DNA from: a candidate division WOR-3 bacterium
GTDB lineage: Bacteria > Hydrothermota > Tepidihabitantia > Tepidihabitantales > Tepidihabitantaceae
Direction of reading: 5' to 3'
Length of the DNA stretch: 64,000 nt
Assembly (NCBI GenBank): GCA_965649205.1
Contig: CBFGJV010000001.1
Location: 19,285-83,284, forward strand
Part shown: one piece after another, positions 4,091 to 41,211 of the stretch
Layout of the letters: each line of letters begins with the position of its first letter
Numbering within the stretch: position 1 is the first letter of the stretch
Made by a program: the position numbers and the translations under genes
Notes under the pieces: generated by a model
What the model saw: the letters and a program-made list of their open reading frames with translations, nothing else
The model's database searches: none
What the model was told of the DNA's origin: nothing

Positions 4091-6901
4091 ATGACTAGAA
4101 AGTTCAAAATCAGAGATAGGAATTCAGAACTTTGGCCCGTGGTGTTGCTGTTCTTTGCGGTTTCGTCCGCTCTGGCGCAAACCGGGAGGATCCGGGGCAG
4201 GGTTACGGACGCTGAGACTGGTGAACCATTGGTGGGGGCCAATGTTATTATTCAAGGGACTCTCTTGGGTTCGGCCACAGATGCAAATGGCGAGTACCTG
4301 ATCAGCAACGTACCTGTGGGGAAACAGACGATAGAAGTTTCCTACATAGGGTATCAAACCTTGGTGCGCAAGGACGTGCTGGTAATACTCGACCAGACTA
4401 TTACTGAGGACTTCAAGTTGAAGCCCGGGGCGGCATTGCGTGTAGAGGAAGTGGTCGTAGCCGGCACGAGAGCGAAGATAGTGCGAACCGACCCGACTAC
4501 AAGCCGGTATATGACAACGGAAGAGTTTGACAAGATGCCGGTGCAGAGTTTGGCTGACATCGTCAGGCTTCAGGCGGGAATTGTTACCAGTCCGGCTTAT
4601 GGTCAGCACTTGCGCGGCGGCCGACCGGATGAGGTGGCTTACTTTGTTGACGGTGTGGCTACCCGCGACCCTCTATATGGCTATCAGGCGGCACAGGTGA
4701 ATCCAGAGGCAGCGGCTGAGGTGGTAGTAATTTCTGGCGGGTTTGACGCGGAGTATGGCGAGGCGATGTCAGGCGTGATACAGGTCATTACCAAGGAGGG
4801 TAAGCCGGTTACACAGGGCAGAGCTAAATATGTCACGGACGAAGTATTCCCCGGCCCCTTGAATTTTGGCGACAACCGCTATGAGGTATCAGTGGGTGGG
4901 CCATTTCCCGGTTTACGCAAATTGCGCTATTTTGTTTCGGGAGAGCTGTACTTCACAGATGACTACGCGCCTTGCCGGCACAAGCTTCCTCATCAACGTC
5001 GGCAGGACTATAACGCCACGGCGAAGTTGACCTATTCCTTGCCTTTGAATCAGGGGCTCAAGTTCACGGCCAGTGGACTTCTCTCGCGAGTACAATACGA
5101 AATGTATCCCAGCGACAGAGAAAGCGAGAATCATCTTGGGTTTAAGTACAACCTTGATCACTATCTTTCTCGTCGGGAGCGCGTAAGAACGCTTGACCTC
5201 TCGGCCAACCACATGCTTACGGAGAAGACCTTTTACACCGTGAGACTGGGTTATTTCTATAACCACCGTACGCAGGCGGTACGGGATCTGGAGCGGGAAG
5301 CCAAGGAGCGTAATTTTGCCGTACGCTTCTGGGAGGACTACATATTCAAGGCTGAGGATTCGGTGTTGGCTGACTCTGCGACTTTGTTCCGTCCCTTGCC
5401 CGGATATGAGGCCCAGACGAATGCCAATTCCAACAATCCCTGGGGCGTTTTCGGCTTATTCTACGGCAAGGGTGATTACCGACTGTTCCTTACTCACTGG
5501 TCGGATGTTGTAAACTTTTCGGGTAATATCACTCACAACATCGGTAAAGTGCACGAACTGAAAACCGGTATTGAGATAAAACGGAGTAACCTGCACCGGC
5601 GCTACAATTCCTTACCTACGGACTGGAACCCATTTGTGGATTACTATGACTTTCAGCCTACTAATGTGGCGGCTTTTGTGCAGGACCGTATGGACTTCGA
5701 GGACCTGGTGGTACGCGCAGGACTCAGACTGGATTATTTGGACCCGAATGCCTACAAGCGGTTTGACCCGACCAACATAGGCAATGACTCTATGATCCCA
5801 GCCAGTGTCAAATACAAGTTGTCGCCACGTCTGGGAATTTCCTTCCCCATAACCGTGCGCACCAAGTTCCGTTTCAGTTACGGCCATTTCTACCAGACCC
5901 CAGCTTACCGCTACCTGTATGACAATATATCGTCAGCTGCCTACAGCAGGGGTAACCAGATAATCGGCAACCCTGACCTGAAAGCGCAGCAGACGATTGC
6001 TTACGAGTTGGGCCTGGAGCAGCAGCTATCGGATGTTACTCTGGTCGATTTTACTGCCTACTATAAGGACATATTTGACCTGATGGGCACGCGTTTCCAG
6101 CCCGCTGTTCCTCTGGGTTACTTCCCGCTGGTAAACGAAGAATACGGCAGCGTGCGCGGCTTTGAGGTAGGTTTTGTGAAGTCCCTTGCTGACTACTGGA
6201 ATGGCAGGATTTCCTATGGACTTTCCGCAGCGCGGGGCACGGCTTCGTATACATACGAGTGGTACTATGAGCGGTATCGGTATGGCGTAGACCCGGTGAC
6301 AGGACAGGAAATGGAGCCGCCGCGTCGCGACTATGCGCTGGATTTTGATGAGACCCACAACGCCAAGTTGAGTCTGGGCTGCGATTTCCCCAAAGACTTT
6401 GCCTTTGCTCCGTTGCGGGAATTCACCGCCTCGGCTCTGGCTAACTTTGGGTCCGGTCTTCCTTATTCACCGCGCGAGGTGCGACGTCTGAATGCGGGAC
6501 GGCTCACGGCGGAGCGTAACTCGGCCCGCATGCCGCCTAGGTTCACCACAGACCTGAATCTGGGTAAGCATGTAACCCTCGGAGGAATACGTATCGGCCT
6601 TACCTGTGTCGTTACGAATCTTTTCAATGCCCGTGTGGTGCAATGGGTATACGGCGCAACCGGACTACCCAATGACGACGGATACATCTGGACCTATTCT
6701 CCGGCTAATTGGGCCAATACGCTAGATGCGACTCTGCTCTCTGGGACCTATCATCCGGCCCGAGACCGCAACCACGATGGCTACATTACGGACGAGGAAG
6801 AGTATGTGGCTTATCGTTGCGCTTATCTGGACTTTGTGGACAATCCGGTAAACTACGGGCCGCCAAGGCAGATAAAAGTTGGCATCAATATCGAGTTCTG
6901 A
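4091..6901 (+). CDS. TonB-dependent outer-membrane receptor, SusC/RagA-like, with N-terminal carboxypeptidase-regulatory-like domain
   Basis: ATG with GAGGAGG RBS and a signal peptide. CarbD_reg-like motif RGRVTDAETGEPLVGANVII...DANGEYLISNVPVGKQTIEVSYIGY. Plug region, a long beta-barrel, and a terminal aromatic residue (...GINIEF). Confidence 0.85.
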   Translation: MTRKFKIRDRNSELWPVVLLFFAVSSALAQTGRIRGRVTDAETGEPLVGANVIIQGTLLGSATDANGEYLISNVPVGKQTIEVSYIGYQTLVRKDVLVILDQTITEDFKLKPGAALRVEEVVVAGTRAKIVRTDPTTSRYMTTEEFDKMPVQSLADIVRLQAGIVTSPAYGQHLRGGRPDEVAYFVDGVATRDPLYGYQAAQVNPEAAAEVVVISGGFDAEYGEAMSGVIQVITKEGKPVTQGRAKYVTDEVFPGPLNFGDNRYEVSVGGPFPGLRKLRYFVSGELYFTDDYAPCRHKLPHQRRQDYNATAKLTYSLPLNQGLKFTASGLLSRVQYEMYPSDRESENHLGFKYNLDHYLSRRERVRTLDLSANHMLTEKTFYTVRLGYFYNHRTQAVRDLEREAKERNFAVRFWEDYIFKAEDSVLADSATLFRPLPGYEAQTNANSNNPWGVFGLFYGKGDYRLFLTHWSDVVNFSGNITHNIGKVHELKTGIEIKRSNLHRRYNSLPTDWNPFVDYYDFQPTNVAAFVQDRMDFEDLVVRAGLRLDYLDPNAYKRFDPTNIGNDSMIPASVKYKLSPRLGISFPITVRTKFRFSYGHFYQTPAYRYLYDNISSAAYSRGNQIIGNPDLKAQQTIAYELGLEQQLSDVTLVDFTAYYKDIFDLMGTRFQPAVPLGYFPLVNEEYGSVRGFEVGFVKSLADYWNGRISYGLSAARGTASYTYEWYYERYRYGVDPVTGQEMEPPRRDYALDFDETHNAKLSLGCDFPKDFAFAPLREFTASALANFGSGLPYSPREVRRLNAGRLTAERNSARMPPRFTTDLNLGKHVTLGGIRIGLTCVVTNLFNARVVQWVYGATGLPNDDGYIWTYSPANWANTLDATLLSGTYHPARDRNHDGYITDEEEYVAYRCAYLDFVDNPVNYGPPRQIKVGINIEF

Positions 6902-6914
6902 TAAGGAGGAGAGC

Positions 6915-9900
6915 ATGCGAATACAGAACAGACAGGAAATACGGTTGTTTTTCGGCAACCGCACACTGTTTGCTGCGCTGGTTTTGCTCGTAGCAGTTTC
7001 TTCCGGCTGGGCAAGGACAGCAGGCAAAGCCTGGCGGCCACCGCGTATATTTGACTTCAGATGGTACCAGAAGAACCAGTGGCGTCTGCCCATAACCAAC
7101 TACGCTACTTTTGGATATGGCATTGGTCGTTCGGGTGGTGAGTGGCCCGCAGGTTCTGGCGATATGTACATCTATGGCGCGGGCATCTGGATCGGCTGCA
7201 TCAGACGCGGTCCGGGAGGAAAGGATACGCTGGTATCATGTGGTTATAACCCGAACTCGGGCAAGTCAGAGATGACTCCGGGCGCGTATGACAACGCTAC
7301 AGGCGGTTATGCTGACCGAGGATTTGAGCGAGTTTATGTTTACCCTGGAGACTGGCCGCCGAAGGAATCAGACTTCCCGCCTTCCATGTGGGGCGGTGTT
7401 GAAACTCCTCTGCGCATTAAGGGTGACCCGACTTTCCGAGACACTTTCTATTATGTGCCTCGTAAAGCCACTTCTCTCGGCGATGCCTGGGCGGTGTTCA
7501 ATGATCGGGACCCGGCCCAGCACGTAGCCGGTAAGACGCCCAGGCCTATCGGAGTAGAAGTATATCAGGAGACCTACTCCTGGACCTTGCCGTGGAACAA
7601 GGACATAGTGTTTTTCAAGCTCAATGTGCGCAATCGGACGCAGGATACATTGCGGGATGTGTATCTGGGTATGGCTTGTGATGCTGACGTAGGAAATGCG
7701 GCTGACGACTGGTGCGGTCTGGCGCTGTCCAAGTACATATACAGCCCAGACGGCAGAGATTCGGTCTTTGTGGACAACATGGGTTATGTGTGGAGCAATG
7801 ATGGCGTACCTTCCGGCTTTGTGGGCTTTGACTTCCTCCAGAGTCCTTTCTGGAAAGATGCCAATGGCAAGATGCGTGAAGTAGCACCGGCTCCGGGTCA
7901 GGATTCTATTTACCCGAACGGTTACGACGACAACAACAACGGGCTCATAGACGAACCGGCGGAAGGCAGACAGTTGGGAATGACCGCGTACAAGATATTC
8001 ACCTTGACTGACGCTGACCCCAAAGACGATGTAGAACAATTCCTGGCTCTGGCTGGCTATGACTACTGGGACCCGCAGAGGCCATATAACCCCTACGATT
8101 CTTCTGACCAGGCTGCGGCTGATAAGCGTTTCCTGCAATCCACTGGACCGTTCAATCTGGCGCCGGATGAGATAGCCACAGTAACCATAGGTCTGATTGC
8201 CGCGGACCGGGCAAGAGGCGGACCGCCCGGAACAATGGTTTACAACTTGGCTTTGGCATCCCGTGCTGCGCAAGCCGCCTACGACAACAACTGGATTATG
8301 CCCGAACCCCCGCCCAGCCCGAATGTGACTACTATTCCGGGCGACGGGCGGGTTACGATTGTATGGGACAATCTACCAGAGAACGCCAAAGACCGTTTCT
8401 ATCCGGTTGCGCCGGCCCTGAAGAATCCCTTCTATACGGAGAAAGACTTTCAGGGATACAAGATATACCGCAGCCGTACCGGTCAGCCCGGAGACTGGAA
8501 GCTGCTGGCGCAGTGTGACAAGATAGATGGCATCAAGTACGAAGATAAGAGCGCGCCGGAGTCGCTACGCACCAAAGCCACAGATGCCGGACTATTCTAC
8601 AGTTATGTAGATTCTTCAAACTTGCGACTGGGGTTTCCTTACTACTACGCAGTAACAGCATTCGACGTCAATTACCTGGGAGACACGACAGGCGGCCAGA
8701 AACTGGATACGATGTCGCTGGAGTCGGGCATTACTGCGGTGAGGGCTGTGCCTCGTACTCAACCTTCGAACTATACAGCTCCCGGTGACAGCTGGTGGCA
8801 GGTGGCTGGCAATCCCAAACTTCGGTTAAAGATAAACCCTCTAGCGGTGAGTCCCCATGCAGTAAAAGACCAGACCTATCGTATACAATTCGGGCCTCCC
8901 AGATATGACCCTGTGGCACGAGAACCGGTGTACAGTTTTGTGGTGACAGACGAGGCCGGAGACACGGTGGCAGGCCCCACGAGCTTCGTTGCCGCCATCA
9001 GCCGCACCACCGATACCTTCCGGCTGGTTCCCACAGTGTTTGACTCGGTAATTACACGCATAGCCCGGGTGCGCTCTCCTTCGGGTGACACGGTTATAGA
9101 TACTACCAAAGCCTGGCTGCCGGTAGCGCAGATGGCATTCACTCTGCAGATGGACTCAGTACCGCTACAGTTCTTCCAGAAGATAAGTCTGGTAAAGAAC
9201 GCAGCAGGATACCCGGCGGAATCGCTGGCTTTTCCCGTGCCTACGCAGAATCGGGCTCTCTGGGCTTACCGAGGGTCAACCTATCGGATTGCCTGGAAAA
9301 CGCATCCATCTGGTCGTCTGACCTGCGAGGTTTACGACCTAGAAAACCAGCTGCCTGTACCTTACCGCTACTTCAGTCCGCGCGCAGCCACGCCGGACTC
9401 GGCAGACGGCTGGTGCTTCCGGGATATACGCGATGCGGCAGATACTTTCTCAGTAGGCAAGACCTGGTTTATGTATCTGTGCGGCAGCACGTTCCAGTTC
9501 AACCCAACAGGCGCAGCGGCGTTCTCGCCCGCTGACGGCGATACCTGGCTTGTGTACTCGCGGCCGCTGGCTCCGGCGCCTGTGTTCTCCGCCTTCAATG
9601 TGCGCTTCACCGCGGCCAGATTTGCTAGCAGCAGCGATACGGGCAAGCTTAACGTCAAAGTGGTGCCCAATCCATATCTGGTGCGCAACGAGTGGGAACG
9701 GCACAAGGACTTCCGCAAACTCAAATTCATAAACCTTCCTTCCAAATGCACCATACGCATCTACAACCTTGCGGGCGACCTGGTACGGACGCTTACGCAC
9801 GACGAGACCAATCCTCGGGCTGGCGGTTTGCCCAACCAGTACGGCGGAGATGAAGACTGGGACCTGCTGAACGAGAACAGCCAGAAACCGGCGCCTGGGT

Positions 9901-9968
9901 TGTACCTGTTCCATGTGGATGCCGGGGAGCTGGGCACGCAGGTAGGCAAGTTCGTCATCGTATACTAG
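6915..9968 (+). CDS. large secreted protein (~1017 aa) with T9SS C-terminal sorting domain; possible PorU-like or T9SS cargo
   Basis: ATG at 6915 after an AGGAGGAG RBS, with signal peptide LFAALVLLVAVSSGWA. C-terminal VVPNPYLV...GLYLFHVDAGELGTQVGKFVIVY matches the T9SS CTD. It lies directly upstream of a PorV/FadL-like beta-barrel gene, which is the porU-porV synteny seen in Bacteroidetes. Confidence 0.6.
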   Translation: MRIQNRQEIRLFFGNRTLFAALVLLVAVSSGWARTAGKAWRPPRIFDFRWYQKNQWRLPITNYATFGYGIGRSGGEWPAGSGDMYIYGAGIWIGCIRRGPGGKDTLVSCGYNPNSGKSEMTPGAYDNATGGYADRGFERVYVYPGDWPPKESDFPPSMWGGVETPLRIKGDPTFRDTFYYVPRKATSLGDAWAVFNDRDPAQHVAGKTPRPIGVEVYQETYSWTLPWNKDIVFFKLNVRNRTQDTLRDVYLGMACDADVGNAADDWCGLALSKYIYSPDGRDSVFVDNMGYVWSNDGVPSGFVGFDFLQSPFWKDANGKMREVAPAPGQDSIYPNGYDDNNNGLIDEPAEGRQLGMTAYKIFTLTDADPKDDVEQFLALAGYDYWDPQRPYNPYDSSDQAAADKRFLQSTGPFNLAPDEIATVTIGLIAADRARGGPPGTMVYNLALASRAAQAAYDNNWIMPEPPPSPNVTTIPGDGRVTIVWDNLPENAKDRFYPVAPALKNPFYTEKDFQGYKIYRSRTGQPGDWKLLAQCDKIDGIKYEDKSAPESLRTKATDAGLFYSYVDSSNLRLGFPYYYAVTAFDVNYLGDTTGGQKLDTMSLESGITAVRAVPRTQPSNYTAPGDSWWQVAGNPKLRLKINPLAVSPHAVKDQTYRIQFGPPRYDPVAREPVYSFVVTDEAGDTVAGPTSFVAAISRTTDTFRLVPTVFDSVITRIARVRSPSGDTVIDTTKAWLPVAQMAFTLQMDSVPLQFFQKISLVKNAAGYPAESLAFPVPTQNRALWAYRGSTYRIAWKTHPSGRLTCEVYDLENQLPVPYRYFSPRAATPDSADGWCFRDIRDAADTFSVGKTWFMYLCGSTFQFNPTGAAAFSPADGDTWLVYSRPLAPAPVFSAFNVRFTAARFASSSDTGKLNVKVVPNPYLVRNEWERHKDFRKLKFINLPSKCTIRIYNLAGDLVRTLTHDETNPRAGGLPNQYGGDEDWDLLNENSQKPAPGLYLFHVDAGELGTQVGKFVIVY

Positions 9969-9977
9969 GAGGCGGAC

Positions 9978-11027
9978 ATGAAAAGGTTCAGCAAAGCGAC
10001 AAGAATAATCAGAATTGCGTTTCTGTGTGTTTTGGTGCTGGGAACATTCGCCAGTTCTCAGGCGGCGTTTGCCAAGATAGGCATGGCCGGACTCACCTTC
10101 CTGAAGATAGGAGTGGGGCGCAGCACAGGAATGGGAGATGCCTTCGTCGCTGTGGCGGATGACGCCACAGCTGCGTATTGGAATCCGGCCGGGCTGGCCC
10201 TAGTTTCGGGCAGGCAAGCGCTGGTAAACCACATAGATTGGATAGCGGACGTCAGCCACGAATACGTGGCAGTCGTACTACCCGCAGGGCAGGGAAATCT
10301 GGGCATAAATGTCACCGCGCTATCAATGGGCAAGATGGAAGAGACCACCCTGGAGCGCTATCAGGGCACTGGTACTTTCTTCACGGGCACAGACCTGGCC
10401 CTGGGCGTGTCTTATGCCCGGATGGTAACGGAGAAACTGTGCTTTGGACTGACTGCCAAAGTTCTATCTGAAAGAATCTGGGACGTTGGTGCAACCGGCG
10501 CAGCATTCGACCTGGGAGTACACTACAATACCGGCTGGCGGAACTTGCGCCTGGCGATGGCTATTGCCAACTTCGGGCCAGACCTCTCCTTCCACGGCAG
10601 CCAGTTGAACTTCATGCACGACCCCGACTGGGAATGGCCTTGGACGCGGGAACCCATACCCGGCACCTATCTTACCGAGAACTTCTCTCTCCCCGTGATA
10701 TTCCGCTTCGGCGTGGCATATGACTTCATCAACGACGAAAACTCACGACTCACCGGCGCCGCGGACCTCAATCACTACAACGACGTAAACGAGAAAGTCA
10801 ACCTCGGGCTGGAATATGTTTACCGCATTCTCTCTCTCCGGGGTGGTTACATAGTGAACACCGATGCCAGCTATGCCTCAGACTTGGGCATTCGGGCCGG
10901 TCTTTCGGCAGGGATGGGTCTGAAACTAAAGCCGGCGGAGAATCTGGGGTTAACTCTGGACTACAGCTATCGTGACCTGGCGCGACTTGGGGGTTCGCAC
11001 AGATTCACGCTGCTGGTTGATTTCTAA
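9978..11027 (+). CDS. FadL/TodX/PorV-superfamily outer-membrane beta-barrel protein (PorV/PorQ-like)
   Basis: Signal peptide, then the N-terminal motif GMGDAFVAVADDATAAYWNPAGLA that is typical of the FadL/PorV superfamily. Ends in an aromatic residue (LLVDF). Lies 10 bp downstream of a CTD protein. Confidence 0.55.
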   Translation: MKRFSKATRIIRIAFLCVLVLGTFASSQAAFAKIGMAGLTFLKIGVGRSTGMGDAFVAVADDATAAYWNPAGLALVSGRQALVNHIDWIADVSHEYVAVVLPAGQGNLGINVTALSMGKMEETTLERYQGTGTFFTGTDLALGVSYARMVTEKLCFGLTAKVLSERIWDVGATGAAFDLGVHYNTGWRNLRLAMAIANFGPDLSFHGSQLNFMHDPDWEWPWTREPIPGTYLTENFSLPVIFRFGVAYDFINDENSRLTGAADLNHYNDVNEKVNLGLEYVYRILSLRGGYIVNTDASYASDLGIRAGLSAGMGLKLKPAENLGLTLDYSYRDLARLGGSHRFTLLVDF

Positions 11028-11098
11028 ACCAATCCGAACGCTTTATGACCAGCTCGGGATTCCCCGGGCCGGTCTCGTTTTATATGGCAACCGCACTT

Positions 11099-11273
11099 GT
11101 CGGTAGGTGAGATTCGGAATGTCAACTGCTACTGTCAAGCGTAAGAACAAAACTTCCCGACTACGTGGTGTCGGTAGGTGAGATTCGGAATGTCAACTGC
11201 TACTTGGCACGACTCGGCAAAGCATTGCAGGCAGTGGGTGTCGGTAGGTGAGATTCGGAATGTCAACTGCTAC
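11099..11273 (+). CRISPR. CRISPR mini-array: 3 direct repeats of 34 bp (GTCGGTAGGTGAGATTCGGAATGTCAACTGCTAC) separated by 2 spacers (37 and 36 bp)
   Basis: Identical repeats at 11099-11132, 11170-11203 and 11240-11273. Spacers are 11133-11169 and 11204-11239. The repeat starts 5'-GTCGG and ends ...CTAC like Cas12b repeats (e.g. Alicyclobacillus GTCGG...GGCAC). It is adjacent to cas2-cas1-cas4-cas12b. Confidence 0.85.
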
Positions 11274-11339
11274 AGCGCGTGACCGAGGTTGTTGTTCCAT
11301 GCGAACTTGGAATGCATTTTGCGAGAATCTGCAGGAGGT

Positions 11340-11490
11340 GCGCCGCAAACTTTCAGTTTTGCAGGTATGCCTACTGACTAACTTCAGTTAGTAGCAAATC
11401 TTATTCTTCTGCGAGCATCCCTTGACCCCCGTTGCACCACCTGCATGCTCGCACTCCAGATTGTCAGAGAGCAGTTGACTTTCCTATTAT
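11340..11490 (+). ncRNA. candidate tracrRNA between array and cas2: two hairpins plus 3'-proximal anti-repeat
   Basis: Hairpin 11371-11394 (ctactgact...agttagtag, 9 bp with one G-U pair). Hairpin 11410-11418/11445-11453 (tgcgagcat/atgctcgca). Anti-repeat AGCAGTTGACtTTCC at 11470-11484 is complementary in 14 of 15 nt to the repeat segment GGAATGTCAACTGCT. Strand and exact ends are not resolved. Confidence 0.5.
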
Positions 11491-11619
11491 CTACCACTCG
11501 GTGCCAAGGCCGTTGAAGGCGACGACACGTTCCGAGTATTCTGCACCCCTCTAGGATGCGGTTTAAGTATATGTGCCGAAAGGAAATCGTCAAGTGTATC
11601 CGGAGTCGAGCTTCGGAGG

Positions 11620-11910
11620 TTAGACTATGATAGTGCGTTCTTCACCTTCCGGTAAGGGCTGTCCGAGATTCGTGGCAGCCTGGCGCGCCGCAGCTTCGTC
11701 CGCGCCGAGGTCTATAATCAGTGCCTGGTCTTCTTTGAGGTTCATGGCTTCCTCCAGGGCAGACTGCATACGTACGCGGTCAATCTCTTTTAGAGTGCAG
11801 AAGAAGACCGAGTACTGCCAGTGTTCTCCGTAGCCTTTCATTATCTTGAAGACCCGGCGCCAGCGCGCCGGGCTGGAGATGTCGTAACAGACAAGATAGG
11901 AGCGACGCAT
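11620..11910 (-). CDS. cas2: CRISPR-associated endoribonuclease Cas2
   Basis: MRRSYLVCYDISSPARWRRVFKIMKGYGEHWQYSVF matches the Cas2 fold signature. The ATG start overlaps the cas1 TAA stop (TAATG). Confidence 0.85.
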   Translation of the reverse strand: MRRSYLVCYDISSPARWRRVFKIMKGYGEHWQYSVFFCTLKEIDRVRMQSALEEAMNLKEDQALIIDLGADEAAARQAATNLGQPLPEGEERTIIV

Positions 11911-12896
11911 TAGCGAGTAGTCAGGAAGGAGAGAGTGGAGATTTCTCCTGTGAGCCACGCGGCGATCATCTTAGCGTGGAGATAAAGCATTCGGCGATAG
12001 CTCAAACGGTAGTCGAATACCGGATGAGTGACAATTGTATCCATTCTGCGCGCAAAGGCTTTGAAGAATGCTTTGCGGCCAGCTTCGGTGAAATTGCAGC
12101 CAGCCACAGTGTCGAGGAAGTGACCGCCGGTAAGTTCTTCTTTGTTGAATGCGGTGATGGCGATTGAGTCGGCGATGATGGGCCGAAATGGTTCCATCAG
12201 GTCTAGCGCCAGGGCGGGACGGCCGGGACGAGACACATGGAAACCACCGATGGAAGGTTCCAGCCGGGCCATTCTGAGCGCAGCGGCGCATTCAAGACAT
12301 AGCATTGAGTACGCCATCGAAAGGCAGGAGTTTACCGGATCAGGTGGTGGTCGGCGGGAGCGGCCGTTGGCGTCAAAGCGTGACGCTTCCGGCCCCTTGA
12401 GCATTCCGGCGAAATGCTGAAAGTACAGCGCAGCAGCCTGACCTTCGTGACTGCGCAGATTGTCAAGGGATTCGGCGACCCGGGCTTTTTCTACTTCCTG
12501 CGCCATTTGGGCCAGGACGGATGCAGGCAGAGAAGGATGGTTGCGCATCAGGACTGTGCGCTGATTCTGAATTTTGGCGGTGATGAGTGCGCGGGCGAGT
12601 TCCAGGCACTTTTCCGGACGGTCAAGTTGGCGCACTTGTTCCCGGCGCATCTTGGCACTGACCGAGTCCATAGGGTCGATCATTGCCACAAGCCTGCCAG
12701 CTGCGGAAAGATACGCTACTGGTACACATTGGTCGGCTAATGCATGAAGAGCCTGGGTAGAGACCTGCACCGGTCCGACAACAACAAGTCCTTCGAGCCC
12801 GGCGAGTGGAATCTGGCGTTGAGTTACACCCTTGCGGTCTATTACTTCAAGTGCCATCCCGGTGATGCCAATTCTCGTTCCTTGGGACAGTGCCAC
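11910..12896 (-). CDS. cas1: CRISPR-associated integrase Cas1
   Basis: Conserved C-terminal Cas1 block GRSRRPPPDPVNSCLSMAYSML...LDLMEPFRP. GTG start overlapping the cas4 TAG stop. 328 aa. Confidence 0.9.
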   Translation of the reverse strand: MALSQGTRIGITGMALEVIDRKGVTQRQIPLAGLEGLVVVGPVQVSTQALHALADQCVPVAYLSAAGRLVAMIDPMDSVSAKMRREQVRQLDRPEKCLELARALITAKIQNQRTVLMRNHPSLPASVLAQMAQEVEKARVAESLDNLRSHEGQAAALYFQHFAGMLKGPEASRFDANGRSRRPPPDPVNSCLSMAYSMLCLECAAALRMARLEPSIGGFHVSRPGRPALALDLMEPFRPIIADSIAITAFNKEELTGGHFLDTVAGCNFTEAGRKAFFKAFARRMDTIVTHPVFDYRLSYRRMLYLHAKMIAAWLTGEISTLSFLTTR

Positions 12897-13639
12897 TAGC
12901 TGAATACCCTCGTCACGGGGCGGCCACAGCTTGCGGGGTGTGGTTTGTTCAGTTTCGGTTTGGCCGCGCTGGAAGTTGATTTCGTCCGGCAGGCAGATGG
13001 GGAGAAGTGAACACCGGGGCAGCGCGGGTCATTGACGAGAGGGAGAGGGCGGGGGCCTTCGGCGCACTTCTTAGCCGCCTCAAGTATAGTCAGCGCTTCG
13101 TTGCGCAACTGCTGGTCAACCGGAATAGTGAGCTTGCGCTTTTCCTCAGCATAGTACAGCACCGCTTCATTCACTGTGTATCCAGCTTCTTCCAACAGAA
13201 GTGCCTGCAGTCCTACTTGAATCCGATCCGCAGGCCAAGGCGCAACTACCGTCAATGGTGGTGAATCTGCTTCTTCAGTCTCCTCGGGTGGTGGGGCGAT
13301 GGAAAGGTGTTTTGGCGCGCCTTTGCGGTATTCTACTGGTGTGGCCGTGTTACCAAAGATTTCAGCCAAGTCAAGAACGGCGCTGATCCCGAGCCGGGTA
13401 CTGGAAAGAGCGAGGGAACGGATGGATTTCGGTCTGTCCGGGTCTTCGTCAGATTCGGTCTCTTCTTTCCTGTCAGACGGAGCGCAGCTCGGTCGGTCAA
13501 CCCAGCGGTGGACCGCACAACCTTGCTCGGTGTCGGGTGAGGGCAGAAAGATGCCCTCAACTGCCATATAGTAGAATAGACGCGGGCAGTAGGCGTACTC
13601 GGCGACGTTGCGGCAGCCCCAGAGTTCAGACTCGCTCAC
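12896..13639 (-). CDS. cas4: Cas4 RecB-like exonuclease with Fe-S cluster
   Basis: N-terminal YCPR motif (AEYAYCPRLFYY), plus three C-terminal Cys (KKCAEG, RCPG, SACR) that complete a 4-Cys cluster. The gene sits between cas12b and cas1. Confidence 0.8.
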   Translation of the reverse strand: MSESELWGCRNVAEYAYCPRLFYYMAVEGIFLPSPDTEQGCAVHRWVDRPSCAPSDRKEETESDEDPDRPKSIRSLALSSTRLGISAVLDLAEIFGNTATPVEYRKGAPKHLSIAPPPEETEEADSPPLTVVAPWPADRIQVGLQALLLEEAGYTVNEAVLYYAEEKRKLTIPVDQQLRNEALTILEAAKKCAEGPRPLPLVNDPRCPGVHFSPSACRTKSTSSAAKPKLNKPHPASCGRPVTRVFS

Positions 13640-13642
13640 AGA

Positions 13643-16600
13643 CTACAGACCGGCCCACTCACGCAGGCGTTCAATAACCCGGAATTTCACCTTATTCCAG
13701 TACTCGATGGAGCTCTGCCAACTGTCGGATTCAATTGCTGCGGCTGACACATCGCGCCAGGCGTTGACCACGTCTTTGTCAACGGTTTCACTGAGTAGTT
13801 GCCCATTCAGGTCGAATGCCTTCGTACCCTTACACCTGTCCTTTGCCGGCTTGCCGTTCCTGCCGCAGGGGATCCACCACCACCTACCTGGCCAGTCCGG
13901 GTCCAGGAGCGCGCGCAGGCCGATGTTGGCGGCAGCATTGAGGTCGGCCTGGATGCCTTTGGACGCGGGCGAGTTTCTGTCCGCCGAGACGAAAAGTTCA
14001 CCTGAGCGGTCAAGAATCCGTACCAACTTTGTGTTGTCGGTGCAGCCGTCCCACTTCGCCTTGAGTGCTTCGAGGTACTCGTTTTCTGCTCCCGCGGCGT
14101 TTTTGACCAGCCGTTCGTAGCGCCTCAGGAATTCCGGCACAGGCAGGTCTGTGCATCTTGCGCCCGGCGCGCCGGTGCGGGAATCCTGCCGGGAGGTGTA
14201 ATTGGGTATTACTTGGCGGAGGTGCAGGCCATTCAATTCGCAGGCTTCTTTCAGATACCTGAGAACTTTTACCGCTGACCACTGCATCAATTGACGGTTC
14301 TCGCGGCGGGTGCGGATCTGCTCAGGTCGATAGGAATCCAGATTTTCAACCACAACGGCATGGCAGGGTTTAAAGCGAGGTTCGACGATTGGTTTCTGAG
14401 GCCGCTTACCCCCTTCCCAATGTTTCTTGTCTTCGGAACCGATGCCCAGCGCGGCTTCCACAATTCTGGAAGCCAGTTGTTTCACCCGGTTCTCGCGCAG
14501 ATGTTCTAGTGTATTAAGGACTCGCTGGCCGTAGTTATCCAATCGTATGTCCCCTTTTTCGGGTGTGTTTCTGCGAATGTCTTCCGGCTCCGGTCTTGTC
14601 GTGTACGCTTTCATGGCTTGCCACAATTCGCGGATGTTTGCGAGTCGGTCCAATGACAGGCCACCTACGTGTCGGATAGAGGCATCGGATTTCGGTCTGC
14701 CGCGGGGCAGTAGCCAGTTACGAAGCCAGCGAAGATGACCTTTCCATTGTTTGTCATCTTCGCGCCAACGTGTGGCCCAGATAGTGTGTAGCTTCATCCG
14801 TAACTGGGGATTGCCGGCTAGTTTCGCCGCATAGTCAGTCAGTAGTTTGCGAAGATTCCTATTGTAAGTCTTGAGGTCGGCTTGCGTTGCGTCTTCGCCT
14901 GGCGCGGGTGGAAGTTCCGCCTGCACGTATGTGTGCCACATTTCCTTGGCCCAGTCGTCGCGCCAGCGGGGGCTTTGGAACAGACTCTGCCAGAGTATCA
15001 GGGTGTCTTCTAGGAACTCTCGGCGCCTGTCCGAGGTCAATTCTTCCCAGCGGTCGCCTGGTAGCGGCTTCCGGTCGGTTTTCAGGTTAAAAGCAATTCG
15101 AGCTCGATCGCCATGGCGGCGAAGTCCGAGCCGGGCGGTGTGGACCGCATCAGCCATCAGGCTGACTATGTTGTGAGGCAGAGGGTTGTCTTTCGTTCGG
15201 ATGCGACCGAGCCAGGCTTCGAACTGCTGCACTGCTGCATATTCATCAGGCGATGCCTTCCGGCCGGTTTCATTTTCGCCCTGCAGTTTGATAAGGAATT
15301 GCCGGTCGAGTCTTGCCCACATATCCGGGCCGGTACGACGGTAAATTGTCCTAAGTCTCTTACCGTTTTGACTGAGGAGCAGATGCAGGGCAAGGTCACC
15401 GGGTTTCGGCGGCTTTCGCCCGGCCTCTACGCAGAGGCGGGTCATCTGCTCTTCGGTAAGGGTCTCCCAGACCGCACAGGCTGCCGCGTAGCGGTGGCCG
15501 AGGTCCAGTGATAGCACACGAAAGCCCGGGAATACGGCATAGCATAAGAGTGGCATGCCCTTTCCGTCCTTTATTGTCTTCAGCGTGCGGCCAGGCTTGC
15601 GGGTCCTCGTCCAGGTTGAGTCTGCGGGCCAAGGTTGCCCAAGGGCCGGCTTCCTGTGTCTGCAGGCGGCCAGAGAAGGTGATGAACCAGTTCAGGCCGT
15701 TGCGCATTTTAACAGCTTTTGCATCCCAGCCATGCTTCTGCACGCGTCTGGCTAGCCGGTCGAGCTGGGCGCGGGGCGCCTGCAGGCGGCCGTTCCAGTC
15801 CTTCTCGACGAATACATTTAGGACAAGCACAGCTGTTTCGCTGCCGATGCCGGCTGCGGCGCGGCTGAGTCGGTCGGCGCGGCTAACCCGGACACCATCC
15901 GGAGCCTGTTCTAACATTAGATCAGCAACAAGCCGCTTGGACTGCCAGAGCATTGCGGTTCTGCCAAGCGATGAGCCTGTTACGGTACGTAGCGTAAGCC
16001 GCCGGTCGGACAGGGCGGCGCGGAATCGCGCGCGGGCTTTTTCAAGTTGTTTCTGTGCCCTGAGTAGCTGGGTGGGCATTTTTTCACCAGTGGTTTCGCC
16101 ACAATACGCGAGAGACTGTTTTAATCCGTCCACTTTCAAAACCGCTTTCAGGCAGGAGTTCGCAGCTTTGTGTACGGCAAAAGAAATTGCCCAGCGAGAC
16201 TTGCCGTAGTCGCAGAACACCGGATGAGATAATGGATGAGGATGACGATAGGCCGGGACTTTGAAGCGGCGCATCTTCGCCTGGGCGTCGCGTGCGTTAA
16301 CATAGTCAAGGAGCGGCTGCGGGTCGGGTCTGCCGTTGCGCAACCAGACGATGCTGGCGCCTTCTGCAGACAATGCCTCGAACAGAGTTATGTCGCCGAA
16401 CTTCTCGATTTCGTCCTGCAGTTCTCTGGCCGCAGCCTTGCGGTCTTCGGCGGTGCGGCAGTCTCTTGCAGACCAGGCTTTCACAATTTCTTCCCAACTT
16501 TCTACCGCCCGGGGCTGAATTTGGAGCGGGCCGACCGCACCAGTCAGGCGGCCACGTTCTTCCAAGAATTCGTCCAGCCATTGTTCCACATCGGTCGGAA

Positions 16601-17816
16601 CCTGCTTTTGGGCCTGTTCCGCTAACTTCTGGCGGTTGGCTTCGGCCCGTTTTTGCCAGGAGTGGGCGGAGGAAACCCTCCTGAGTGCGAGATCCAGCAT
16701 TACCGAGTACTCGTCTGTCAGGTTCCGGCCACAGACAAAGGGTAGGCCGGTGGCTTTCTCGACGCGGGCGCGCAATGTCTCGGCCCATTTGGGCACGTTT
16801 CTAGCACCCTTTTTTATTTTCTCCATTTTCTCGTCGGCCTCGGCTGCCAGTTTGGCCTGCATAGTTGAGATCGTATCCGATGTTAGTACCGGCATGGCGT
16901 AAACTTTCTCAATAGCCAGTTTTCCCTGCGAGGGGCGACCTTTCCATCCGATGGCTTTGTAGATGCTGCTGAGCAAGTCTCCCTTTTCCGTCGCCTGAAG
17001 AAGTGTCAGAAGGTGGCTAGCCAAGGCAGAGCCGGACTGACCCTCGTAGTGGCTCAGGTCCGCAGTAGCAAGCGTGCGCAGCTTTTCTGCTATTCGCTCC
17101 AGGTCGCTTTTTTCTCCAGTTCCCCAACAGTTCACGATCCAGCTGCGAGCCTTCTCTCGAAATTTTGTTTCGTGCGCGGCCGCCGCGGTTGATCCGGATT
17201 CTGGTAGCTTGAGGAATTCGTCTAAGTCCCCAAATAACTCTCTAATCGCCGACTGCGCTTGTTCCCTGGTAAGGGTCTTATCGTTCTGCGCTTCCACGTC
17301 GAATGCCTTGGCGCGGTTGACCCAGACCGCGTCTTCTCGAATGGCGGCACAGAGCGAATCTTTGCAGTCGGCAACCCAGGTCTCGATTTCCTCCTTGGTC
17401 AGACCACGTGAGGCGAGAACTTCCTAGAGCGCGGCAACGATTTTGCACTTGCGGTCGGGCGCGGCGTCTTTGCCGGTGGCCACGATGTACTCGGCCGGAG
17501 CACCGTCGGCGGATTCAACCGAGAGCCAGGAAAGTGCGAGCATTATACGACGGTGACGAGTTTCTTGGTCGTCGGGACGGCGTTCGGTTTTCTTCTGGCC
17601 TTTTCCTTCGGTTACCGATAGCTCTGTAAGACGGTGGTCCAGACCACCGCGGAGGGTGAGGAGCCAGTCAGCGAAGACCTTGGTTCCCTTGTTGATTGTC
17701 TCGTGCGTACGCCATAGTGCCTCGCGCCAAGCCTCATCTTCGCTTCCTTCTCTGCCCGGTATGCCGCGCAGGCGCAGCGTGTAGGCCCGTTGGGTAATTG
17801 TCGCAGACGTCGTCAC
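13643..17816 (-). pseudogene. cas12b: cas12b (C2c1) type V-B effector, ~1390 codons, interrupted by an in-frame TAG (17424-17426) and a 1-nt frameshift near 15556-15563
   Basis: Three co-linear ORFs: 17816-17424, 17297-15396 and 15556-13643. The N-terminus LWRTHETINKGTKVFADWLLTLR resembles Cas12b LWKLHKEVNAGVRYYTEWLSLLR. RuvC-I is FRVLSLDLGHRYAAA, RuvC-II is AVVVENLDSYRP...RENRQLMQWS, and the Nuc/RuvC-III region is RCTDLP...WDGC...ADLNAAANIGLRAL; all three match Cas12b. The first and second ORFs share a frame, separated only by TAG. The second and third differ by +1, with the frames diverging at the homopolymer ccc/ttt (15558-15563). Confidence 0.85.
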
Positions 17817-17849
17817 CTCCTGTCGTTGCGCGGTATGCAGAAAGCTTAG

Positions 17850-18230
17850 GTGGGAAAATTGGATTTGTCAAGAGAGCGGCGGGAGGGTAGCAAGGTAGGC
17901 GGTTCGGGGAGCAGGAAGGGGATTACTCCACCAGGCGGCGGGCGGGGCGCATCAGAGGGCAGGAAGGATAGTAGGTCGCTGCATGGGAGAGTGGGCGGGT
18001 CGGTGAGGGACTCGGCGGGCGGGTGGGCTATTGGACGGGGGAGTTGCCGGGTCTGCGGCCGGGAGGACTACGGGGGATACGGACCGGTGGGCAGGTGGTG
18101 GAGTGGCTCAGGGAGCGGCGGAGCGGGCAGGAGACCGGGTTATCCGGAGAGCCACGGAGGGAGCCGCTGGGGGAGCTGGGGAGGGGGGTAACGGAGGATT
18201 TCAGGTATCAGATTGTGGTGCAAGGAGTTA
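17850..18230. repeat. G/A-rich, C-poor low-complexity tract (GGGNGGG, GGCGGGCGGG runs) in the divergent cas12b / HTH intergenic region
   Basis: The plus strand is dominated by G runs, i.e. the cas12b-sense strand is C-rich. The ORF-track protein here is Gly-rich nonsense. On the cas12b-sense strand the tract shares CCGCCCGCC/CCCACCC motifs with the 45.6-kb C-rich tract. Confidence 0.6.
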
Positions 18231-18255
18231 GGTCGCTAAGAAGCCTTGCGGACCG

Positions 18256-18273
18256 TAATACTAATGAGTATTA
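18256..18273. promoter_or_regulatory. near-palindromic operator TAATACTAATGAGTATTA 10 bp upstream of the XRE regulator start
   Basis: 9+9 inverted repeat with one mismatch. A perfect version, TAATACTCATGAGTATTA, recurs at 62189-62206. Confidence 0.6.
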
Positions 18274-18283
18274 TCAAGTCTGT

Positions 18284-18646
18284 ATGGGCCGCAGGTATGT
18301 GCAGGATTCTTTCTACTTCCCGCAGGCGCTGGGCGAGCGGCTGCGGGAGCTTAGGCTGCGGGCGGGCCTGACCCAGAAGGAGCTGGCAAGTATGGCCGGG
18401 CGGGAGTTTCGGGGCGGGCAGGCCATGGTGAGCAGGCTGGAAAGAGGCCGCATTCGGAGCCCTTCTTTGCGGTTGGTGGCGGATTTTCTGCGGGCCTGTC
18501 GAGCGAGTTTTGACGACATCCGCGATGTCCTGCACGCCTACACGGCGCAGCCATTGGTGGCGGAGAAGCGGGCAAGAAGGGCGGTGCAGAGACTGGTGGA
18601 GGTTTTGCCGGAGGGTGTGGCGGGAAGGTGGATAAGTACGATGTGA
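18284..18646 (+). CDS. XRE-family helix-turn-helix transcriptional regulator
   Basis: HTH_XRE signature LRELRLRAGLTQKELASMAG...VSRLERG. ATG at 18284. The upstream part of the ORF-track frame is G-rich non-coding. Confidence 0.75.
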   Translation: MGRRYVQDSFYFPQALGERLRELRLRAGLTQKELASMAGREFRGGQAMVSRLERGRIRSPSLRLVADFLRACRASFDDIRDVLHAYTAQPLVAEKRARRAVQRLVEVLPEGVAGRWISTM

Positions 18647-19425
18647 AGACGGCAGTGTGGCGTCGGCACCAGGGAGATTTGCCGGAGGCAGAGGCGGCAC
18701 GGTTGGAGAGAGTGAGGGGAATGGCTCAGCAGTTGCTTTTGCGGCAGAAGTTGGAGGAGAGGTTGCATATTGCCCTGAATCATATCGGCGCCAGGCGGGG
18801 CGGGCCGGCAAGAAAGGCGCTGGCCGATTTTGGTCGCAAGGTTTGGGCTATTTTGCGCCGAACGCGGGCGCAGCCAAAGAAGAGGGCGTACCTTTTGTCT
18901 GAGGCGGGCGAGAAGCTGAGGCAGGAACGGGTGGTGACAGACGAGGCCATACGTTATATCGAAACCGTGACGTGCGAGCTTTTTGCGGAGCTGGAGCAGA
19001 AGGGCGAGTTGGATCGCTTGCCGAGCGTAGAGGTCACAGAGGGGCTGCTGGCCAAAAGGGCGGGGGAGCGAGTTATGCGAGATGAGCAGATGTGCGCGGA
19101 GGAGTGGAGAAAGCAGTTGCGGGAGTACGAGCAGGCGCGGGAGCGAATGCTGAGACAGGTGCTGGACGAAGCGAGACCGTTGTTTGCGGAGAAGGGAAAG
19201 CAGGAGGAGGTATTCTATATTGGCGTGGTAAGAGGTTGTTTGTATGCGGCGCAACGGACGCGGGCGGGGAGTAAAGAGCGGGAGCAGGCAACAGAGGAAG
19301 CGTTGCAAGTGGTACGCAGGAAAGGGCTGGATGTAGAGTTGGCGCGACAGGTGGCCGAGTTTGCCTTGCGCAGGTTTGACGAGTTGCTGCGTTTTCTCCC
19401 GCCGAATCCCCGGACGCAGCTCTGA
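18628..19425 (+). CDS. hypothetical Arg/Glu-rich alpha-helical protein (265 aa), operonic with the HTH regulator
   Basis: GTG start overlapping the HTH gene end by 19 nt in another frame. Highly charged, coiled-coil-like composition with no recognisable motif. Confidence 0.45.
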   Translation: MDKYDVKTAVWRRHQGDLPEAEAARLERVRGMAQQLLLRQKLEERLHIALNHIGARRGGPARKALADFGRKVWAILRRTRAQPKKRAYLLSEAGEKLRQERVVTDEAIRYIETVTCELFAELEQKGELDRLPSVEVTEGLLAKRAGERVMRDEQMCAEEWRKQLREYEQARERMLRQVLDEARPLFAEKGKQEEVFYIGVVRGCLYAAQRTRAGSKEREQATEEALQVVRRKGLDVELARQVAEFALRRFDELLRFLPPNPRTQL

Positions 19426-21246: not shown

Positions 21247-22707
21247 ATGAGACCAAAGTTGAAGCTGCTTAGCGAGGGACTTGTTGAGCAGATTGTAGCC
21301 GAGGCACTGGACCTGCTGGCCGTGTTGGGAGTAGAAATAAACAACCCCGGGCTGGTTGAACTGCTGTTGGCCCAGGGCGCAGAATGGGATACCGAGAAGA
21401 AAAGGTTGCTGTTGCCCGAGTCCATGGTGAGGCAGGCTTTGGCTGCTGCTCCGTGTTCGTTCCGGTTGTATGATGTGCGAGGGGAGATGACAAATGAACT
21501 GGGGGGTGATAATGTGTATTTCACCCCGGGTTCTGCGGCGTTGAACATTCTGGATGCAGATACCGGCGAGATGAGACGACCACAGACGCGTGATTACGTG
21601 CAGTATGCCAAGCTGGTGTCGCGTTTAGAACACATTGCGGCCCAGTCCACAGCCCTGATACCGGCAGATGTGCCGGAGAAGATTTCGGACAGCTATCGGT
21701 TGTATCTGTCGTTGCTGTTCTGTGAGAAGCCGGTGGTTACCGGCTGTTTTACGATAGAGTCCTTTCGAGTAATGAAGGAAATGCAGGTGGCGGTGCGGGG
21801 TTCTGAAGAGGAGCTTGTCGCCCGGCCCCTGACCATTTTTTCCTGCTGTCCGACCGCGCCTCTGAAGTGGAGCGAGGTGACTTCGCAGAATGTGGTGGAT
21901 TGTGCGCGGGCCGGTATCCCGGTGGAGTTTATCTCCATGCCTTTGTCCGGCTTTGTGGCGCCTGTCACCCTGGTGGGCACTTTGATTCAGCATACGGCGG
22001 AGACCCTGTCGGGTGTGGTTATCAGTCAAACAGTCGCGCCGGGTTCGCCGATTCTTTATGGCGGTTCGCCGGCGATTTTTGATGTGCGCCGAGAAACTAC
22101 CCCGATGGGCGCCATAGAGACGATGATGATTGACTGTGCCAGTGCAGAAATAGGTAAGTACCTGGGTTTGCCCACGCAGGCTTACATCGGTCTTTCCGAC
22201 GCGAAGCTGCTGGACGCACAAGCCGGGCTGGAAACAGGCATCGGCGCAGTTCTGGCCGCCTTGGCAGGCGTGAACAGCGTGTCTGGTCCGGGCATGCTGG
22301 ATTTTGAGAGTTGTCAGAGTCTGGAGAAGCTGGTGCTGGATAATGAGATATGCGGCATGGCGCTGCGGCTGGTGCGGGGTATTGAGCCGCACGAGGACTT
22401 TCCGGCCTTGAATCTTTTCACCGAACTGTTGAGTGAGAAACATTTGCTTATCAGTCCGCATACCAGGCGCTGGCTGAAGACAGAGCACTACTTTCCCGGG
22501 CCGGTGATAGACCGGGCAAACAGAGGACGCTGGCAGGCTGCCGGTAGTCCTACTCTTTTGGCACGGGCGCGCCGGGAAAAGGAGCGCTTGATCGCCAGCT
22601 GGCAGCCGTCCCGTCTGGCAGAAGAGACAAAAAAGGAACTTACCCGGCTGATGACCACAGAGGCCCGGCGCTGGGGGATGGAACAGCTGCCAGAACTGCC
22701 CGCATGA
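21247..22707 (+). CDS. MttB-superfamily (non-pyrrolysine) quaternary-amine:corrinoid methyltransferase (MtgB/MtqB-like)
   Basis: 486 aa, the length and architecture of the trimethylamine methyltransferase family. Uninterrupted ORF with no in-frame amber codon. GGGAAAAATG RBS. Confidence 0.75.
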   Translation: MRPKLKLLSEGLVEQIVAEALDLLAVLGVEINNPGLVELLLAQGAEWDTEKKRLLLPESMVRQALAAAPCSFRLYDVRGEMTNELGGDNVYFTPGSAALNILDADTGEMRRPQTRDYVQYAKLVSRLEHIAAQSTALIPADVPEKISDSYRLYLSLLFCEKPVVTGCFTIESFRVMKEMQVAVRGSEEELVARPLTIFSCCPTAPLKWSEVTSQNVVDCARAGIPVEFISMPLSGFVAPVTLVGTLIQHTAETLSGVVISQTVAPGSPILYGGSPAIFDVRRETTPMGAIETMMIDCASAEIGKYLGLPTQAYIGLSDAKLLDAQAGLETGIGAVLAALAGVNSVSGPGMLDFESCQSLEKLVLDNEICGMALRLVRGIEPHEDFPALNLFTELLSEKHLLISPHTRRWLKTEHYFPGPVIDRANRGRWQAAGSPTLLARARREKERLIASWQPSRLAEETKKELTRLMTTEARRWGMEQLPELPA

Positions 22708-40785: not shown

Positions 40786-41211
40786 TTAGGTCTGTGTTTT
40801 TTCCGGAAGAGGACCGAGGGCTATTATGGTCTCTGTGAATTTTGTCACCGCGTCGGCAAAACGTTGACCCTCGGAGGCTGAAATCCATTCCAGATGAAGC
40901 CTTTGAGGTTCTATTCCCAGTCCCCTTAGAAGAGACTGTAGCAGCATTATTCTTTTCTGGGTCTTGTAGTTACCCGAAACGTAGTGGCAGTCACCCGGGT
41001 GGCACCCACCGATAAAAACCCCGTCCGCTCCGTCCCGGAATGCTTTGAGGATAAACTGAGGGTCTATGCGGCCAGTGCACATTACCCGTATAATGCGAAT
41101 GTTAGCGGGGTATCTGAGCCTGGCTGTTCCGGCCAAGTCGGCACCTGCGTAACAGCACCAGTTGCAGGCGAATCCTACGATGCGAGGTTGAAAGCCAGGG
41201 GAAGAACTCAT
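40786..41211 (-). CDS. mvhD: MvhD-like (methyl-viologen-reducing hydrogenase delta / FlpD-type) iron-sulfur electron-transfer subunit
   Basis: [10 protein letters not shown] motif characteristic of MvhD. The ATG overlaps the hdrA TGA stop (ATGA). Confidence 0.75.

Follow-up and report, generated by a model that had tools for sequence, protein, structure and literature searches.

Guide RNAs of Cas12b contain a long, bulged repeat:anti-repeat duplex and a short duplex of 5 bp beside the guide, which results in a pseudoknot. This pseudoknot of long and short repeat:anti-repeat is a hallmark of Cas12b (PMC11246509). The cryo-EM structures of Cas12b of Candidatus Hydrogenedentes (ChCas12b, 1496 aa) with its sgRNA have been reported (PDB 9kln-9klq; PMC12204704). 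The parts of that sgRNA are stem 1, linker L2, stem 2, R:AR duplex 2, a UUC linker, stem 3 and R:AR duplex 1, of which R:AR duplex 2 is formed by G-60 to C-56 with G-5 to C-1 (PMC12204704). For the comparisons described below, the sequence of the ChCas12b sgRNA was rebuilt from the primers in PMC12204704 and reads GGCUUCUACAGGAGGCGAAAAGACUGCGGAACGUGUCUUCCCCUUCAAUGGGCGUGGCACCGCAGCGUUGUUCAGUCCUGAUCAACGGACAC.

The window, which is the whole stretch of 64,000 nucleotides analyzed in this study, carries a type V-B CRISPR-Cas locus that is entirely on the minus strand (Table 1). The effector was taken for a Cas12b in the initial annotation, and our results support this assignment. NCBIfam NF033949 matched all three cas12b pieces, the Pfam C2c1 RuvC-like domain was present in the cas12b product and the best PDB match of the window Cas12b was 9kln (ChCas12b) with an E value of 1.7e-140, whereas the structures of AacCas12b and BthCas12b reached only about 1e-14 to 1e-17. 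Intact Cas12b homologs were roughly 1400–1550 aa long. The closest named Cas12b relative was from L002, a WOR-3 MAG. Two further regions near the locus were also recorded. On the plus strand, the ORF at 18023–18646, which is divergent from cas12b, contains by eye a sequence similar to the helix-turn-helix of XRE type (…LTQKELASMAG…) and could encode a regulator of the locus. Upstream of the array, the plus-strand region 6879–11027 contains an ORF of 1029 aa without any Pfam match and an outer-membrane protein similar to PorV, which would fit an FCB/WOR-3-like host.

The interval between cas2 and the array very probably encodes a tracrRNA of the ChCas12b clade of type V-B, which would be transcribed from the minus strand and co-directionally with cas12b-cas4-cas1-cas2 and the array. 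The gene has the position proposed initially, with the cas2 stop (11620) on one side and the array (11273) on the other. For comparison, one genome per species was scanned with an alignment of the C-terminal part of Cas12b, from which 80 further loci were obtained. The nearest Cas12b homolog on a long contig was P0006 of locus L001. In L001, a conserved block downstream of cas2 aligned with the window solely in the orientation of the cas genes, and a near-consensus sigma-70 promoter was found ahead of this block in L001 and the window alike. When the minus strand of the window from 11620 to 11280 was used as an nhmmer query, more than 40 of the 80 loci were matched. All matches were on the cas12b strand, either after cas2 or directly after cas12b, except for a weak extra one in L075. 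The alignment on the cas strand began with a TTGACa/TAtAnT promoter, a hairpin with a CUAnAGG loop and an A-rich linker. Next came a stem around the invariant ACGUGUC(G/U)UC plus a small hairpin; a variable region separated this stem from a second conserved block.

The sigma-70 promoter predicted in the window is 6–7 nt upstream of the tracrRNA. An equivalent promoter scoring at least 9/12 was found in 28 of 34 related loci, compared to 0 of 34 on the reverse complement, and the -10 element of most related promoters ended 4–9 nt before stem 1. From the promoter and the start of the ChCas12b sgRNA, we infer that the 5' end of the tracrRNA is at about 11559.

Table 1. Features of the type V-B locus in the window, with window coordinates.
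Feature	Coordinates	Strand	Remarks
cas12b	17816-13643	-	Large ChCas12b clade; about 1390 codons
cas4	13639-12896	-	Pfam PF01930/PF01867 for the cas4-cas1 pair
cas1	12896-11910	-	Pfam search; NF049935 covers both the cas4 and cas1 halves
cas2	11910-11620	-	Pfam PF09827, E 1.2e-16; NCBIfam TIGR01573
Predicted sigma-70 promoter of tracrRNA	11566-11593	-	Scores 10/12 in promoter scan
-35 and -10 elements	11593-11588 and 11571-11566	-	TTGACG and TATACT; 16-nt spacer
Predicted tracrRNA gene	11466-11559	-	About 94 nt up to the end of the long anti-repeat
Stem 1 hairpin	11543-11559	-	GCAUCC-UAGAG-GGGUGC; covariation, 33 sequences
Stem 2	11496-11537	-	ACUCGG (11537-11532) with CCGAGU (11501-11496)
Short anti-repeat	11528-11524	-	GUGUC; inside stem 2
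Stem 3	11520-11518 with 11511-11509	-	GCC/GGC; loop UUCAAC
C-G closing pair	11508/11505	-	Inside stem 2
Long anti-repeat	11470-11495	-	GGUAG, internal loop, then distal part
46-nt conserved leader element	11408-11455	-	GUGCGAGCAU...GGUGGUG...GGGGG...AUGCUCGCAG
9-bp leader hairpin	11371-11394		Predicted fold; leaders of relatives differ here
Leader motif	11321-11325	-	CUCGC at about -52; weakened copy of the family ryGCTCGC motif
CRISPR array	11097-11273	-	Three 36-nt repeats; repeat on minus strand GTAGCAGTTGACATTCCGAATCTCACCTACCGACAC
Repeats, in minus-strand order	11273->11238, 11203->11168, 11132->11097	-	
Spacers (two)	11204-11237 and 11133-11167		

The covariance model R1 was built from the 5' module of 32 related loci and the published ChCas12b sgRNA, and the window was left out. 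Stems 1, 2 and 3 and one closing pair were imposed on its alignment as the structure. In this alignment, 93% of the cells were paired and 15 of 15 pairs showed compensatory changes. None of 500 shuffles reached the observed pairing, and the register-shifted controls were 37–54% paired. Unfiltered and over both strands of the 64 kb, R1 matched the minus strand at 11564->11485 with 76.9 bits (E 5e-17); no other match was better than E = 4 and none on the plus strand was real. Among the 81 loci, R1 identified the element downstream of cas12b and on the cas12b strand in 67. Moreover, extra R1 matches were found upstream of cas12b and on the opposite strand in three loci (L044:3432-3510, L075:3115-3194 and L071:168-245, all minus), which suggest that some loci have second, divergently oriented tracrRNA or array units.

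Similar results were obtained for the individual stems. In stem 1, all 5 modeled pairs had compensatory changes and 100% of the cells of the 33 sequences were paired, and its UAnAG loop is loop L1 of the ChCas12b sgRNA. Compensatory changes were also found for 6 of 6 pairs in stem 2 and 3 of 3 pairs in stem 3. The stems contained 28 G.U cells vs 7 A.C cells, of which stem 1 had 12 and 0, respectively; the U.G wobble of stem 1 would become a C.A mismatch if it were read on the plus strand. The GUGUC enclosed by stem 2 was invariant in the alignment, and its complement GACAC forms the 3' end of almost every related repeat listed. As GUGUC and GACAC are both essentially constant across the family, their pairing leaves no covariation to test. 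The arrangement of stem 2, GUGUC and stem 3 is that of R:AR duplex 2 and stems 2 and 3 in the solved ChCas12b sgRNA. The tracrRNA folded freely was not significantly more stable than its shuffles (z = -1.6).

At the level of primary sequence, GCAUCCUAGAGGGGUGCAGAAUACUCGGAACGUGUCGUCGCCUUCAACGGCCUUGGCACCGAGUGGUAG of the window minus strand shared 82% identity with the tracrRNA portion of the ChCas12b sgRNA over 66 aligned nt, with the same order of elements, and the ChCas12b sgRNA also aligned to related loci on the cas12b strand. A cmscan of 10500–18800 against Rfam at E values up to 10 returned no relevant match, and two unrelated weak ones were found elsewhere. Because Rfam has no family for this RNA, its membership is based on model R1 and one published sgRNA. 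The tracrRNA most likely represents a typical addition to the ChCas12b family of guide RNAs, whose structure has already been solved, and is what a specialist would expect at this place.

In the initial annotation, a 15-nt segment at 11470–11484 was proposed to be complementary to the repeat. Our analysis confirmed this complementarity at 14 of 15 positions, with one mismatch to the reverse complement of the repeat segment GGAATGTCAACTGCT. In a pattern search allowing up to 2 mismatches, the 15-mer was the sole match in the 64 kb outside the three repeats; 0.13 matches are expected by chance and none of 100 shuffles attained the observed count. The inverted repeat extends to 22 nt, from 11470 to 11491, of which 18 (82%) are complementary to each repeat. 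The mismatch-limited search was used because an energy-only RNAduplex scan of the whole window was non-discriminating: the GC- or G-rich regions at 45746–45805, 40971–41025 and 21526–21575 had RNAduplex energies similar to that of the true anti-repeat. Their pairing was patchy and rich in G.U, and they were judged to be chance matches. A better anti-repeat upstream of cas12b (17817–18280) had been named as a finding that would speak against the proposal. Duplex scan and mismatch-limited search of 17780–18320 revealed no comparable anti-repeat in this region.

The 15-mer is, as proposed, part of the tracrRNA anti-repeat, and in the long repeat:anti-repeat duplex it makes up the distal half. The proximal GGUAG (11495–11491) is complementary to CUACC at repeat nt 27–31 (C27–C31), and the internal loop AUAAUA lies between GGUAG and the distal part. 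The distal part, GGAAAGUCAACUGCU (11484–11470), faces repeat nt 3–17 (A3–C17) with one A.A mismatch; the region that matches this half of the duplex is left out entirely of the ChCas12b sgRNA. The anti-repeat of the window paired with its own repeat at -23.1 kcal/mol, compared to -11.0 +/- 3.1 kcal/mol with the repeats of 28 other loci, so that its own repeat ranked first of 29 as pairing partner. Over the 29 loci, pairs of an anti-repeat with its own repeat averaged -26.4 kcal/mol vs -17.9 kcal/mol for cross pairs. For 22 of the 29 loci, the long duplex had its greater stability on the cas strand (p = 0.004). In the window alone it was about 2 kcal/mol more stable with both RNAs from the plus strand, and the stability of the duplex thus does not discriminate between the strands here.

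The orientation of the array was assessed by comparison with about 57 related arrays, nearly all of which had repeats of 36 nt with (N)GACAC at the end when viewed on the cas strand. The repeats of the window also measured 36 nt and not 34 nt as given before. They read GTGTCGG...CTAC on the plus strand and GTAGCAG...CCGACAC on the minus strand, and the final base of the distal repeat is A instead of C. When only the arrays lying fully inside their contigs were counted, the distal repeat was more degenerate than the proximal one in 10 loci, and the reverse was seen in 1. The GACAC ends together with this decay of the distal repeats place the leader on the tracrRNA side and indicate a minus-strand orientation of the array. 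The previously proposed orientation, 5'-GTCGG...CTAC-spacer, disagrees with the related repeats, and the GTCGG taken for the repeat start is merely the reverse complement of CCGAC. Likewise, the repeat segment paired with the 15-mer is 3'-proximal only if the array is on the plus strand, with which the comparative evidence disagrees.

Two hairpins had also been assigned to the 5' part of the tracrRNA. When 11340–11490 was folded as a plus-strand RNA, stems were indeed predicted at about 11371–11394 and 11410–11453 (z = -2.1 vs shuffles). The hairpins thus stood as predicted folds, but not as tracrRNA scaffold: that at 11410–11453 is an element of the leader and that at 11371–11394 is not conserved in sequence. 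No U-tract followed the 11371–11394 hairpin on the minus strand. The two arms of the stem at 11410–11453 are the inverted sequences GCGAGCAU and AUGCUCGC within a 46-nt element, which was present in 53 related leaders. The consensus of the element is GCGAGyGyG-GGTGGTG-GGGG-ryGCTCG. The spacing from CGAG to CTCG was 36 nt in 48 of the 53 loci and 35–37 nt in four others. Relative to repeat 1, the element was located at -140 to -144 in 36 loci or at -131 to -134 in 17 loci, and at no position between, whereas its distance to the tracrRNA core varied by about 100 nt. A distance that is fixed to the array and variable to the tracrRNA core assigns the element to the leader and not to the tracrRNA scaffold. 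Its two variable stem columns contained 37 G.U cells vs 7 A.C cells on the cas strand, so that, if the element forms a hairpin at all, it would be a minus-strand one.

The two distance classes of the 46-nt element differ by about one helical turn. Such a fixed and helically phased spacing suggests recognition at the DNA level by the integrase or a host factor. Other motifs of the leaders were also positioned regularly. The ryGCTCGC motif is at -53 in the family, and 40 of 54 leaders had GCTCG within -51 to -54. In part of the leaders, TTGcGAG was observed at about -12, with CGAGC at position -11 or -12 in 9 of the 54. GGCG was noted at the leader-repeat junction of the V-B leader architecture. 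One possibility is that the conserved Cas4g/Cas1g-Cas2 integrase or a host factor uses these motifs for docking or phasing. With one exception, the loci in which Cas1 was detected had a Cas1 of 54–71% identity. We tentatively propose that a leader architecture with the 46-nt element is common to V-B loci of the ChCas12b clade from many phyla and has apparently not been described; no description of V-B leader motifs was found in the literature searched. This rigidly spaced architecture is the only part of our results that may be new.

Within the 135 nt before the array, a sigma-70-like promoter was found in only 2 of 54 leaders. As the leaders lack a sigma-70 promoter of their own, tracrRNA, leader and array could share one transcript, and it may be speculated that the tracrRNA promoter also drives the leader and the array as one primary transcript. 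Several other readings of the conserved leader sequences were rejected. ATGCTCGC as the start of a small ORF, or GGAGGTG as a ribosome-binding site, was rejected as the ATG is missing in many loci, and the conserved TTGACAA as the -35 element of an array promoter was rejected as no -10 element is present at 16–18 nt. Separately, a conserved TCTTTGACAAT motif was observed in many loci between the long anti-repeat and the 46-nt element (11456–11466 of the window, minus strand CTCTGACAAT). It resembles a -35 box, and no -10 follows it.

The cas genes of the window are not intact. cas12b contains an in-frame TAG at 17426–17424 and, within a T-run near 15522–15530, a 1-nt frameshift, at which tblastn with intact homologs changes frame. 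In relatives, including L001, cas4 and cas1 are one Cas4g/Cas1g fusion, whereas in the window a frameshift near 13010–13020 in a G-run separates the two, and the cas1 frame runs upstream into the C-terminal Cys motif of Cas4. These lesions reflect either decay of the locus or a local mis-assembly, and the stop and frameshift of cas12b and the split of cas4-cas1 mean that the CRISPR system may be inactive in this genome. It is conceivable, although we consider it rather unlikely, that the minus-strand tracrRNA is correct but the locus is a non-functional, decaying remnant, in which the RNA is perhaps still made without a working effector. Such a remnant would be in line with the lesions of cas12b and the broken fusion, with an array of only two spacers and with the cas12b of L001, the closest relative, which is likewise annotated as three genes; in addition, the remaining long ORFs of the window appear intact, which speaks against pervasive assembly errors. 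However, both frameshifts are within homopolymer runs, where frameshifts are a typical artifact of sequencing or assembly. Moreover, the tracrRNA (76.9 bits), its promoter (10/12), the repeats and the leader motifs are all well kept, and the only difference among the three repeats is the last base of the distal one.

All indirect indicators of strand, namely the promoter, the G.U bias, the GACAC end, the decay of the distal repeat and the identity to the sgRNA, point to the minus strand for both tracrRNA and crRNA. The initial annotation had instead placed a plus-strand tracrRNA at about 11340–11490, with two 5' hairpins, a 3' anti-repeat and a crRNA of the form 5'-GTCGG...CTAC-spacer, transcribed convergently with the cas genes. 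With this model, the 5' handle of the crRNA would be ...GUCAACUGCUAC. The complementarity on which it was built is symmetric between the strands and, at this locus, slightly more stable on the plus strand, where both hairpins also fold. Nevertheless, we regard a plus-strand tracrRNA as highly improbable. The covariance model matched nothing on that strand, no plus-strand promoter was found upstream of 11340, and the only plus-strand promoter-like site, at 11461–11490, overlaps the anti-repeat. Related repeats finish with GACAC on the cas strand. The hairpin at 11410–11453 keeps its distance to the array and not to the tracrRNA core, and on the plus strand its variable pairs would become A.C mismatches in 37 cells over 46 loci. 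The validated ChCas12b sgRNA also corresponds to the minus strand. The R1 match, the promoter, the G.U bias and the sgRNA identity favor a co-directional transcript over a convergent one. The order of 5' stem-loops and 3' anti-repeat within 11340–11490 is not supported either, because the scaffold is at 11485–11559, across the anti-repeat and mostly outside that interval.

That the repeat-like segment is a stand-alone degenerate repeat or a regulatory cr-like RNA and not a tracrRNA can be set aside with near certainty, for although such sequences are common in CRISPR loci (PMC10120712), this segment is inverted relative to the array and not direct, is physically continuous with a scaffold whose sequence and covarying structure correspond to those of the ChCas12b tracrRNA, and has neither a spacer-like partner nor a second repeat beside it.

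Based on the minus-strand tracrRNA, the following mechanism is proposed. As the comparison shows, the sigma-70 promoter predicted at 11593–11566 precedes the RNA, which would start at about 11559. The RNA folds into stem 1, then into stem 2 enclosing GUGUC and stem 3, and continues with the long anti-repeat. By analogy with ChCas12b, AacCas12b and BthCas12b, GUGUC would pair with GACAC (G32–C36), the last five bases of the repeat by the spacer, and form the pseudoknot, while GGUAG is expected to pair with CUACC immediately upstream of GACAC. The distal duplex between the 15-mer and repeat nt 3–17 is probably removed during crRNA maturation and, judging from known guides, dispensable in sgRNAs. 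The mature crRNA would then carry the 5' handle ...CUACCGACAC. As in known systems, the dual RNA would be bound by Cas12b, and the spacer would direct the cutting of PAM-flanked DNA.

For annotation, these results correct a V-B locus in its strand, boundaries and repeat orientation, which had been reversed by a plausible argument from homology. Read as its reverse complement, ...CCGACAC looks like the GTCGG with which well-known Cas12b repeats begin, which is a trap for other loci as well. The minus-strand sequence provides a directly testable sgRNA design for a large nuclease of the ChCas12b clade. In addition, model R1, which covers 67 of 81 loci and has no counterpart in Rfam, could together with the conserved promoter and the leader motifs aid the annotation of V-B loci and studies of adaptation.

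Compared with other known systems, the tracrRNA of the window shares with the Cas9 tracrRNA (RF02348) an anti-repeat to the CRISPR repeat, a gene within the cas locus and, presumably, a requirement for guide formation. The Cas9 tracrRNA, however, forms a single duplex without a pseudoknot, and its scaffold hairpins are 3' of the anti-repeat. Similar to the tracrRNAs of AacCas12b and BthCas12b/BhCas12b (PDB 5u30, 5wti), that of the window is encoded beside the cas genes and the array, and it is predicted to form the long bulged duplex and the 5-bp short duplex near the guide, with a pseudoknot, that are known from Cas12b (PMC11246509). The stem lengths and linkers of these guide RNAs are different (PMC12204704). 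AacCas12b and BthCas12b/BhCas12b also belong to a different Cas12b clade from that of the window (about 1e-14 to 1e-17). Their repeats end with GGCAC or AGCAC, and their short anti-repeat is GUGCC or GUGCU, not GUGUC.

The closest solved homolog is ChCas12b, and both effectors are large (about 1390 aa for the window vs 1496 aa). The window RNA has its elements in the order of the ChCas12b sgRNA, namely stem 1 and its UAnAG loop, an A-rich linker, stem 2, GUGUC, UC, stem 3 and its UUCAAY loop, CUUGGCA, the closure of stem 2 and the long anti-repeat; the repeats of both also end with GACAC. Different from ChCas12b, stem 3 is GCC/GGC in the window instead of CCC/GGG, the window RNA is encoded as a natural two-part gene whereas the sgRNA is an engineered fusion, and the effector reading frame is broken in the window assembly. 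Finally, the anti-repeat and the repeat body are unrelated in the two systems (GGUAG...GGAAAGUCAACUGCU in the window vs GUUGAUCAG... in ChCas12b), as expected for co-varying partners.
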